Positions 6,805 through 6,940 of a stretch of 64,000 nucleotides of DNA are shown here, in pieces. The DNA comes from Escherichia coli. GTDB taxonomy: Bacteria > Pseudomonadota > Gammaproteobacteria > Enterobacterales > Enterobacteriaceae. Below the pieces are notes generated by a model, which did not search any database, was not told the origin of the DNA, and saw only the letters and a program-made list of their open reading frames with translations. Position numbers and translations under genes: made by a program. The stretch lies in NCBI RefSeq assembly GCF_050920415.1, contig NZ_CP169309.1. One strand, given 5' to 3'. Numbering within the stretch: position 1 is the stretch's first letter; the number at the start of each line of letters is the position of its first letter.

Positions 6805-6940
6805 CATAGACTCTAAATAATTCGAGTTGCAGGAAGGCGGCAAACGAGTGAAGCCCCAGGAGCTTACATAAGTAAGTGACTGGGGTGAACGAATGCAGCC
6901 GCAGCACATGCAACTTGAAGTATGACGAGTATGGCAGGAG
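6805..6940. repeat. ERIC/IRU (enterobacterial repetitive intergenic consensus) element
   Basis: Contains gtgaagccccaggagcttacat and aagtaagtgactggggtgaacg, each one mismatch from the ERIC1R/ERIC2 core sequences as recalled; long imperfect palindrome (agttgca...tgcaact) in the dxs-yajO spacer. Confidence 0.7.

Follow-up and report, generated by a model that had tools for sequence, protein, structure and literature searches.

ERIC (IRU) elements of E. coli and Salmonella have been known as a family since 1990-91 (Sharples and Lloyd 1990; Hulton, Higgins and Sharp 1991; Wilson and Sharp 2006; all as cited in PMC3184786). For elements of the ERIC type, duplication of a TA dinucleotide upon insertion has been described (PMC3184786). 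In Yersinia, ERIC copies can change mRNA stability (De Gregorio et al. 2005, as cited in PMC3184786), and in Neisseria the Correia elements (CREE) are bacterial MITEs that reportedly contain or generate promoters and affect the stability of mRNAs (PMC3184786). Here, we describe an ERIC copy in the spacer between dxs and yajO of an E. coli genome (contig NZ_CP169309.1). The whole stretch of DNA that was analyzed, 64,000 nucleotides long, is referred to as the window, and the features discussed are collected in Table 1. The first enzyme of isoprenoid precursor synthesis, which controls flux through the pathway, is encoded by dxs, and YajO serves as its backup.

Table 1. Features of the dxs-yajO region, in window coordinates
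Feature	Position	Strand	Basis
ispA	3982-4881	+	ORF list; annotation
dxs CDS, 620 aa, stop TAA 6766-6768	4906-6768	+	ORF list; RefSeq annotation of MFDS1022581
5' arm of ancestral inverted repeat, with anti-Shine-Dalgarno CTCCTGC 6780-6786	6775-6792	+	Folds; inverted repeat I2; 82 loci; covariation
yajO promoter, extended -10 TGcTATGCT, start site A6799 (K-12; expected in the window strain)	6784-6792	+	Conservation; K-12 SMRT-Cappable-seq
ERIC/IRU element	6807-6933	+	Rfam RF02818; 125-bp indel; ybhI-ybhJ alignment; hairpin
ERIC central core, apical hairpin CCCCAGG...CTGGGG	6848-6891	+	42/44 core match; apical stem conserved across copies
RNA 5' end in K-12, base of apical ERIC hairpin	6854	+	Kim et al. 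2012 supplementary table
Antisense promoter, TGcCATACT (window) / TGcTATACT (K-12), K-12 start = 6921	6921-6936	-	Cappable-seq; dsRNA cluster; hexamer position
3' arm of ancestral inverted repeat, with yajO Shine-Dalgarno AGGAG 6936-6940	6928-6945	+	Folds
yajO CDS, 324 aa, ATG 6948	6948-7922	+	ORF list; annotation

Gene annotation was taken from RefSeq strain MFDS1022581, which is 100% identical to the window over the 1 kb tested. It confirms the yajO start codon that had been read from the sequence alone, as well as the end of dxs, and the element lies in the extragenic DNA between the two. The RefSeq record of MG1655 has no feature annotated in this spacer.

The ERIC1R and ERIC2 primer sequences were verified in the literature, where both are printed in 233 papers. 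When ERIC1R-rc and ERIC2 were joined into a 44-mer, 42 of 44 positions matched window 6848-6891 (two mismatches), with gtgaagccccaggagcttacat at 6848-6869 and aagtaagtgactggggtgaacg at 6870-6891; 100 dinucleotide shuffles give an expectation of 0 such matches. The sequence-only reading had described both cores as near-exact, as they indeed are. By core search and Rfam alike, this is the single ERIC copy in the window. The body of the element comprises 123 nt (6809-6931), begins with GACTC and ends with GAGTA (TACTC in other copies, by alignment with them), and is flanked by TA on the left (6807-6808) and TG on the right (6932-6933), the right flank being TA in K-12 and E. albertii. It is oriented as the ERIC1R-rc/ERIC2 core and in the direction of dxs-yajO transcription. 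The limits differ slightly by method: 6806-6929 with Rfam and 6806-6932 in alignment to another copy. The interval 6805-6940 originally assigned to the repeat does contain it, and the element itself is the shorter 6807-6933.

The references for the full-length comparison were other copies, the primer core, and the Rfam model, rather than a published consensus. With the ybhI-ybhJ ERIC copy, the element shares 94.4% identity over 124 nt; its counterpart at this locus in K-12 is 100% identical. The Rfam model RF02818 (V_AS5) aligns with it end to end (model positions 1-129, 52.5 bits, E = 6e-10). Poor alignment over the full length had been named in advance as the observation that would speak against an ERIC; since identity holds over the entire element, no such observation was made. 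E. coli genomes contain a median of 5 ERIC places detectable by megablast (range 1-9). The terminal inverted-repeat arms lie at 6810-6831 and 6909-6930 and the inner arms at 6854-6867 and 6872-6885, and the hairpin formed by the whole has an energy of -53.7 kcal/mol (z = -8.8). In a comparison of five copies, drawn from three genera, this hairpin has 44 consensus pairs, seven of them with compensatory changes, and such changes accompany the conservation of the apical stem. Thus, the ERIC core, full-length similarity, palindromic structure, a transcribed extragenic site, multiple genomic copies, and TA duplication with presence or absence between strains are all found here. In conclusion, window 6807-6933 is a genuine ERIC (IRU) MITE, orthologous to the K-12 dxs-yajO copy. 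Both the kind of element and this copy were already known, the latter from its presence in E. coli K-12, and as one more ERIC copy it is of little importance.

A very stable fold may also indicate a dedicated structured RNA, that is, a small RNA or riboswitch controlling yajO, and this was the first impression recorded in the sequence-only reading. The V_AS5 match could be taken in the same sense. However, RF02818 is the sole significant Rfam match in the window, and its score of 52.5 bits is far below the gathering threshold of 96, so that the element is not a member of the family as curated; no other family matches. The model evidently describes a Vibrio relative of ERIC. A permissive Rfam search of the locus returned only this sub-threshold match and a chance match to DicF (E = 0.86). 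Moreover, the sequence belongs to a dispersed repeat of which the genome has further copies, and the corresponding spacer lacks it in about 75 related species and in half of E. coli genomes. The presence/absence data effectively refute a riboswitch or small RNA, and we regard this reading as extremely improbable. Elsewhere in the window, on the minus strand, two sub-threshold Rfam matches to naRNA4 (RF02564) were seen at 38694-38766 and 15885-15921 (40.8 and 37.6 bits; threshold 59.5), and these probably mark REP-type repeats.

To determine the distribution of the element, we searched 5426 complete E. coli genomes with 60-nt queries specific for each junction. An occupied dxs-yajO junction was found in 2842 of these (52%) and an empty junction in 2581 (48%), so the two alleles together account for 5423 of the 5426 genomes. 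This answers the question raised with the original identification, namely whether the copy is shared by other E. coli. Carriers include K-12, BL21, and E. coli 042, and genomes without the element include O157:H7 (for example, EDL933 and Sakai), O104:H4, ATCC 11775, NC101, and B2 strains. The spacer measures 54 nt when empty versus 179 nt when occupied, an indel of 125 bp that corresponds to the 123-nt body plus 2. We also compared 80 species-representative Enterobacteriaceae genomes. An ERIC-free spacer of 54-85 nt occurs in about 75 other Enterobacteriaceae species, and therefore the empty state is ancestral. The TA on both sides in K-12 and E. albertii fits the TA duplication of ERIC-type insertions. 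Present-day empty E. coli alleles read TTCATGGCAGG, without TA (CATGG), and one Citrobacter empty allele reads TTCATAGCGGG (CATAG); thus, the A/G difference at 6933 is a polymorphism at the target itself.

In 123 of the occupied genomes, the ERIC contains a further insertion of 78 bp, rich in small hairpins, which replaces the AT at 6893-6894. This form was seen in E. coli AHB3 (locus L002, 794-871), in E. coli 042, and in E. albertii (L007), whose dxs-yajO ERIC has it as well. About 511 genomes have a 90-95% identical copy of the 78-bp insertion elsewhere. Two Phytobacter species (L028, L033) and Kosakonia sp. S29 (L038) have an ERIC of about 75% whole-length identity to that of the window, in the same orientation and displaced by no more than a few bases; these copies are either recurrent, independent insertions or ancient orthologues. 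In a metagenome-assembled member of the family (Enterobacteriaceae UBA3516, L039), only the two ends of an ERIC-like element are left, CTTACTC...GAAGTAAGACGAGTAA.

The DNA into which the element was inserted is itself structured. An inverted repeat with arms on either side of the ERIC is also found in genomes that lack the element, and it is present in all 82 Enterobacteriaceae loci examined. The impression of one long imperfect palindrome was therefore correct as to palindromic structure, but two nested palindromes are present, the ERIC and this older repeat (6775-6792 / 6928-6945). In minimum free energy folds, every empty spacer forms a single hairpin. The 5' arm consists of CTCCTGC followed by TATGCTTAA in most species, and the 3' arm contains GCAGGAG, the yajO Shine-Dalgarno sequence. 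Across the spacers of L003-L085, the nearly invariant 5' arm CTCCTGCTATGCTTAA combines an anti-Shine-Dalgarno sequence with the extended -10 promoter of yajO. Within it, CTCCTGCTAT has one variable base (T to A in E. albertii).

We aligned both arms without gaps in 65 distinct species sequences. The CTCCTGC/GCAGGAG core pairs nearly without exception, and no variation is seen in the Shine-Dalgarno core GGAG or in the bases paired with it. Two pairs at the stem base covary: the first is CG in 41 sequences, UA in 10, and UG in 8, and the second is GC in 26, GU in 25, AU in 9, and UA in 2. The covariation score of the stem was 0.124, compared with 0.090 in shuffles (none of 500 reached the real value) and 0.02-0.09 in slid controls. 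A Shine-Dalgarno sequence within a conserved stem arm that shows compensatory changes was taken to define an anti-Shine-Dalgarno hairpin, and this is what the alignment shows. No Rfam family covers the ancestral dxs-yajO hairpin. A TA dinucleotide within the loop of this older hairpin served as the insertion site of the ERIC; in the occupied allele, the stem is kept (6777-6792 with 6928-6943), and the whole 170-nt structure has a folding energy of -80 kcal/mol (z = -7.9).

The 5' arm of the repeat also contains the promoter of yajO. For an extended -10 site recognized by sigma-70, we required TGn directly 5' of the hexamer, A at its second and T at its sixth position, and a start 7 nt downstream. 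The site TGCTATGCT at 6784-6792 has all of these, reading ccTGcTATGCTtaagaa up to the A at which transcription begins in K-12 (438284). TGCTAT shows no variation among the aligned arms, and TGCTATGCT is kept in nearly all species loci, the TATGCT hexamer differing only in L045 (TATGAT). From the motif, a start near 6799 was predicted before the K-12 data were found. In K-12 (NC_000913.3), SMRT-Cappable-seq placed the start of a yajO-only transcript at 438284 on the reverse strand (PMC6131387). With the yajO ATG at 438135, this is window 6799, which lies 7 nt downstream of the hexamer and 7 nt before the ERIC; the hexamer occupies -12 to -7 and the TG -15/-14 relative to this start. The element is therefore downstream of the mapped start, in the transcribed region, and its placement in the yajO 5' UTR by the sequence-only reading is supported by these K-12 data.

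All RNA-end data are from K-12 and were carried to the window strain by sequence identity. Since the window equals K-12 over 6769-6932, the same yajO promoter and leader are expected in this strain, where yajO would be transcribed from 6784-6792 as it is in K-12. Given a start at 6799, the ERIC occupies +8 to +134 of a leader of 149 nt, which would be 24 nt in empty alleles. In the leader RNA, the ERIC would adopt a long hairpin structure with an energy of about -54 kcal/mol. For the empty allele in other species, no start site appears among the listed rows of the Klebsiella and Salmonella tables. The published K-12 maps give yajO a second 5' end besides 6799: a supplementary table of Kim et al. 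(2012) lists U00096.2 437453 (19 reads, 94-nt UTR), which is window 6854. This end is not accounted for by the promoter at 6784-6792. Since nothing promoter-like and no -10-like sequence lies upstream of it, it is probably a processed end. A sigma-70-like plus-strand site within the ERIC (TTAAGA-18-AATAAT, 6792-6821) was also considered, and the K-12 operon table has no start site there.

Next, we computed the energy needed to open the segment from the yajO Shine-Dalgarno sequence to the AUG. In RNA that reads through from dxs, this was 18.4-19.1 kcal/mol for the ERIC allele (window and K-12) and 20.2 kcal/mol for the empty allele, with an unpaired Shine-Dalgarno probability of 0.000 in both. 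In RNA from the yajO promoter, which lacks the 5' arm, the opening energy was 3.8 kcal/mol with the ERIC and 4.6 kcal/mol without it, and the unpaired probability was 0.44 and 0.73, respectively. According to these folding models, the ancestral stem should keep yajO translationally silent on RNA reading through from dxs, with or without the ERIC, and the ERIC is predicted to change yajO initiation only slightly. Together, the conserved promoter and the anti-Shine-Dalgarno hairpin suggest that yajO is deliberately translated from its own transcript only. The insertion leaves the promoter, the start site, the Shine-Dalgarno sequence, and the closing stem intact. As these older signals are intact, the insertion appears to be tolerated, with about half of E. 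coli carrying the element. The ERIC may modulate the stability of the yajO mRNA, and possibly that of dxs, and would not be required for expression; its influence on mRNA stability is probably modest.

The same folds bear on the upstream transcripts. The long hairpin formed by the ancestral stem and the ERIC could stop or protect xseB-ispA-dxs transcripts at the dxs 3' end, leaving the promoter of yajO itself as the main source of its expression. In the K-12 operon table, both xseB promoters give transcripts labelled 'ShorterEnd' that stop before yajO, and yajO is found in one transcript context only, as a single-gene transcript (PMC6131387). The stability of the read-through hairpin given above also fits such a role. 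On the other hand, the hairpin is followed by CAGCATGCAATAC, without a T run, and a terminator scan found no intrinsic (Rho-independent) terminator in the spacer; moreover, the ancestral hairpin, though smaller, could suffice for this role without the ERIC. A marker of the dxs 3' end is thus a possible role of the combined hairpin, and one that we think rather unlikely.

In K-12, the right end of the element coincides with a second promoter, on the minus strand. The K-12 sequence reads ccactccTGcTATACTcgtcat up to the A of the start; since the arms are inverted copies of each other, it mirrors the yajO promoter. Its hexamer, located exactly at -12 to -7, consists of the terminal bases of the ERIC and the duplicated TA and is thus half ERIC-derived. 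An antisense start at 6919-6921 was predicted from the motif before data were found; Cappable-seq has a start site at U00096.2 437386 (+) with a score of 38.7, which is window 6921. Huang et al. list the same start, together with a 564-nt antisense operon (437387-437951) of Conway et al. (2014) (PMC7373196). In the p19-captured RNase III double-stranded RNA of Huang et al. (2020), cluster S-43 spans 437393-437579, or window 6728-6914, and ranks fourth in abundance among the clusters that overlap coding genes in stationary phase; where it is treated, the cluster is ascribed to an unannotated antisense RNA, without mention of ERIC (PMC7373196). Table S1c of that study also appears to show a high antisense signal over dxs, to be read with caution since its strand column runs one row out of step with Table S1b; the per-gene RNA-seq values for yajO in it were set aside for this reason.

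The sense start at 6799 and the antisense start at 6921 face each other across the ERIC, so that the overlap of the two RNAs corresponds exactly to the element. In K-12, the right end of the ERIC and the duplicated TA together recreate the yajO promoter in mirror-image form on the opposite strand. The resulting antisense RNA runs back across the ERIC and the yajO leader into the 3' end of dxs, and gives rise to abundant double-stranded RNA cut by RNase III. The ERIC-junction promoter offers a sequence-level explanation of the published unannotated antisense RNA and of S-43 in K-12, and as an ERIC-derived antisense promoter it is mildly new. In empty alleles, the corresponding minus-strand hexamer is CATGAA, without a T at the last position. 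The G at 6933 turns the hexamer into CATACT in the window, and the antisense promoter is probably weaker in this strain, judging by the hexamer. Right-junction types were counted with 48-nt queries, as the 60-nt query also matched other ERIC copies; among genomes with the ERIC, 1158 have the junction of the window, which is also that of B strains, and 1284 have that of K-12.

We also asked whether RNase III cleavage could be treated as a general, proven trait of ERIC hairpins, and the sites of Gordon et al. 2017 lend this no support. The single mention of 'yajO' in that work is a slip for yajQ (the panE-yajQ site), and the panE-yajQ spacer contains no ERIC. The K-12 ahpC-ahpF spacer (L092, 251-327) contains a partial ERIC of 77 nt, 79% identical and in the opposite orientation, and the ahpC-ahpF RNase III site lies outside it.

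Finally, we compared the divergence of the element with that of its surroundings. Relative to K-12, the last 600 nt of dxs contain 33 differences (94.5% identical) and the 975 nt of yajO contain 68 (93.0% identical), or 101 differences over 1575 nt of flanking coding DNA, versus 0 over the 164 nt of left spacer and ERIC (6769-6932). The first difference past the identical stretch is 6933, G in the window and A in K-12. Relative to E. albertii, the two halves of the ERIC are 96.6% and 97.3% identical, and the flanking genes about 90%. A query of 124 nt of the ERIC found a copy of at least 99% identity in 2715 genomes. The sequence comparison points to purifying selection, gene conversion between copies, or recent spread by recombination, and the strong conservation of the ERIC could reflect gene conversion or recent recombination spread instead of function. 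For the region 6169-7922, divergence from K-12 in the dxs 3' end and yajO is unusually high for E. coli, and only 16 of the 5426 E. coli genomes have at least 99% identity over 6400-7400. Between yajO and pgpA, an ORF of 507 aa (8153-9676, plus strand), annotated in the matching strain as a pentapeptide repeat-containing protein, is absent in K-12.

If the element had no effect on yajO or dxs, it would be a selfish or decaying passenger, and all functional signals would reside in the older flanks. This fully neutral reading is the main rival. It agrees with the absence of the ERIC from 48% of E. coli genomes (2581) and from nearly all other genera, with the nearly unchanged Shine-Dalgarno opening energies, and with the internally deleted remnant in L039, as expected for decay. 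However, the ERIC and left spacer are 100% identical to K-12 while the flanking genes differ by 5.5-7%, copies of at least 99% identity occur in 2715 genomes, and the K-12 end of the element is physically part of a strong antisense promoter. We consider a purely neutral passenger quite conceivable, and do not favor it. The reading that we prefer, with high confidence, is that of an ERIC/IRU located in the loop of the dxs-yajO inverted repeat, orthologous to the K-12 copy, contained in the yajO leader, tolerated, and furnished in K-12 with an antisense promoter; modulation of mRNA stability would be a further, conjectural effect. At the other extreme, the insertion may not be silent: it would lengthen the leader from 24 to 149 nt, create a new antisense promoter, and feed the yajO leader and the dxs 3' end to RNase III, and the split of E. 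coli into genomes with and without the ERIC, along with the A/G at 6933, would then constitute a natural regulatory polymorphism of dxs and YajO. We offer this stronger version tentatively and find it doubtful.

Apart from the identity of the element, the conserved promoter and anti-Shine-Dalgarno hairpin of the dxs-yajO spacer, which extend across Enterobacteriaceae, are mildly new. So is the near 50:50 polymorphism, which is a ready-made natural experiment. The locus is a clean natural example of a mobile element placed between a promoter and a ribosome-binding site with neither broken. Since dxs controls isoprenoid flux, strain differences at dxs-yajO could be of practical use to metabolic engineers.

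Compared with the ERIC/IRU of E. coli and Salmonella, nothing essential is different: the element is about 127 bp long, forms an imperfect palindrome with a conserved core, is extragenic but transcribed, has TA at both ends, is present in multiple copies, and varies in presence between strains. V_AS5 shares the same nested hairpin along its full model, with a score that leaves the present element outside the curated family. Like the Yersinia ERIC, the dxs-yajO copy is co-transcribed with its neighbors, forms an RNA hairpin, and belongs to a type whose insertion duplicates TA (De Gregorio et al. 2005, as cited in PMC3184786). In Yersinia, according to the same citing source, the effect is an RNase E-dependent, orientation-dependent decay of the transcript of the upstream gene. 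In contrast, the dxs-yajO copy is in the leader of the downstream gene, and the one effect on RNA documented for it, in K-12, consists of an antisense promoter and RNase III double-stranded RNA. The CREE of Neisseria are likewise small inverted-repeat elements, often located 5' of genes and co-transcribed with them (PMC3184786), but they belong to an unrelated sequence family and host. Unlike CREE, the dxs-yajO element has an antisense promoter that is a hybrid, formed from the terminal bases of the ERIC and a pre-existing palindromic promoter arm.
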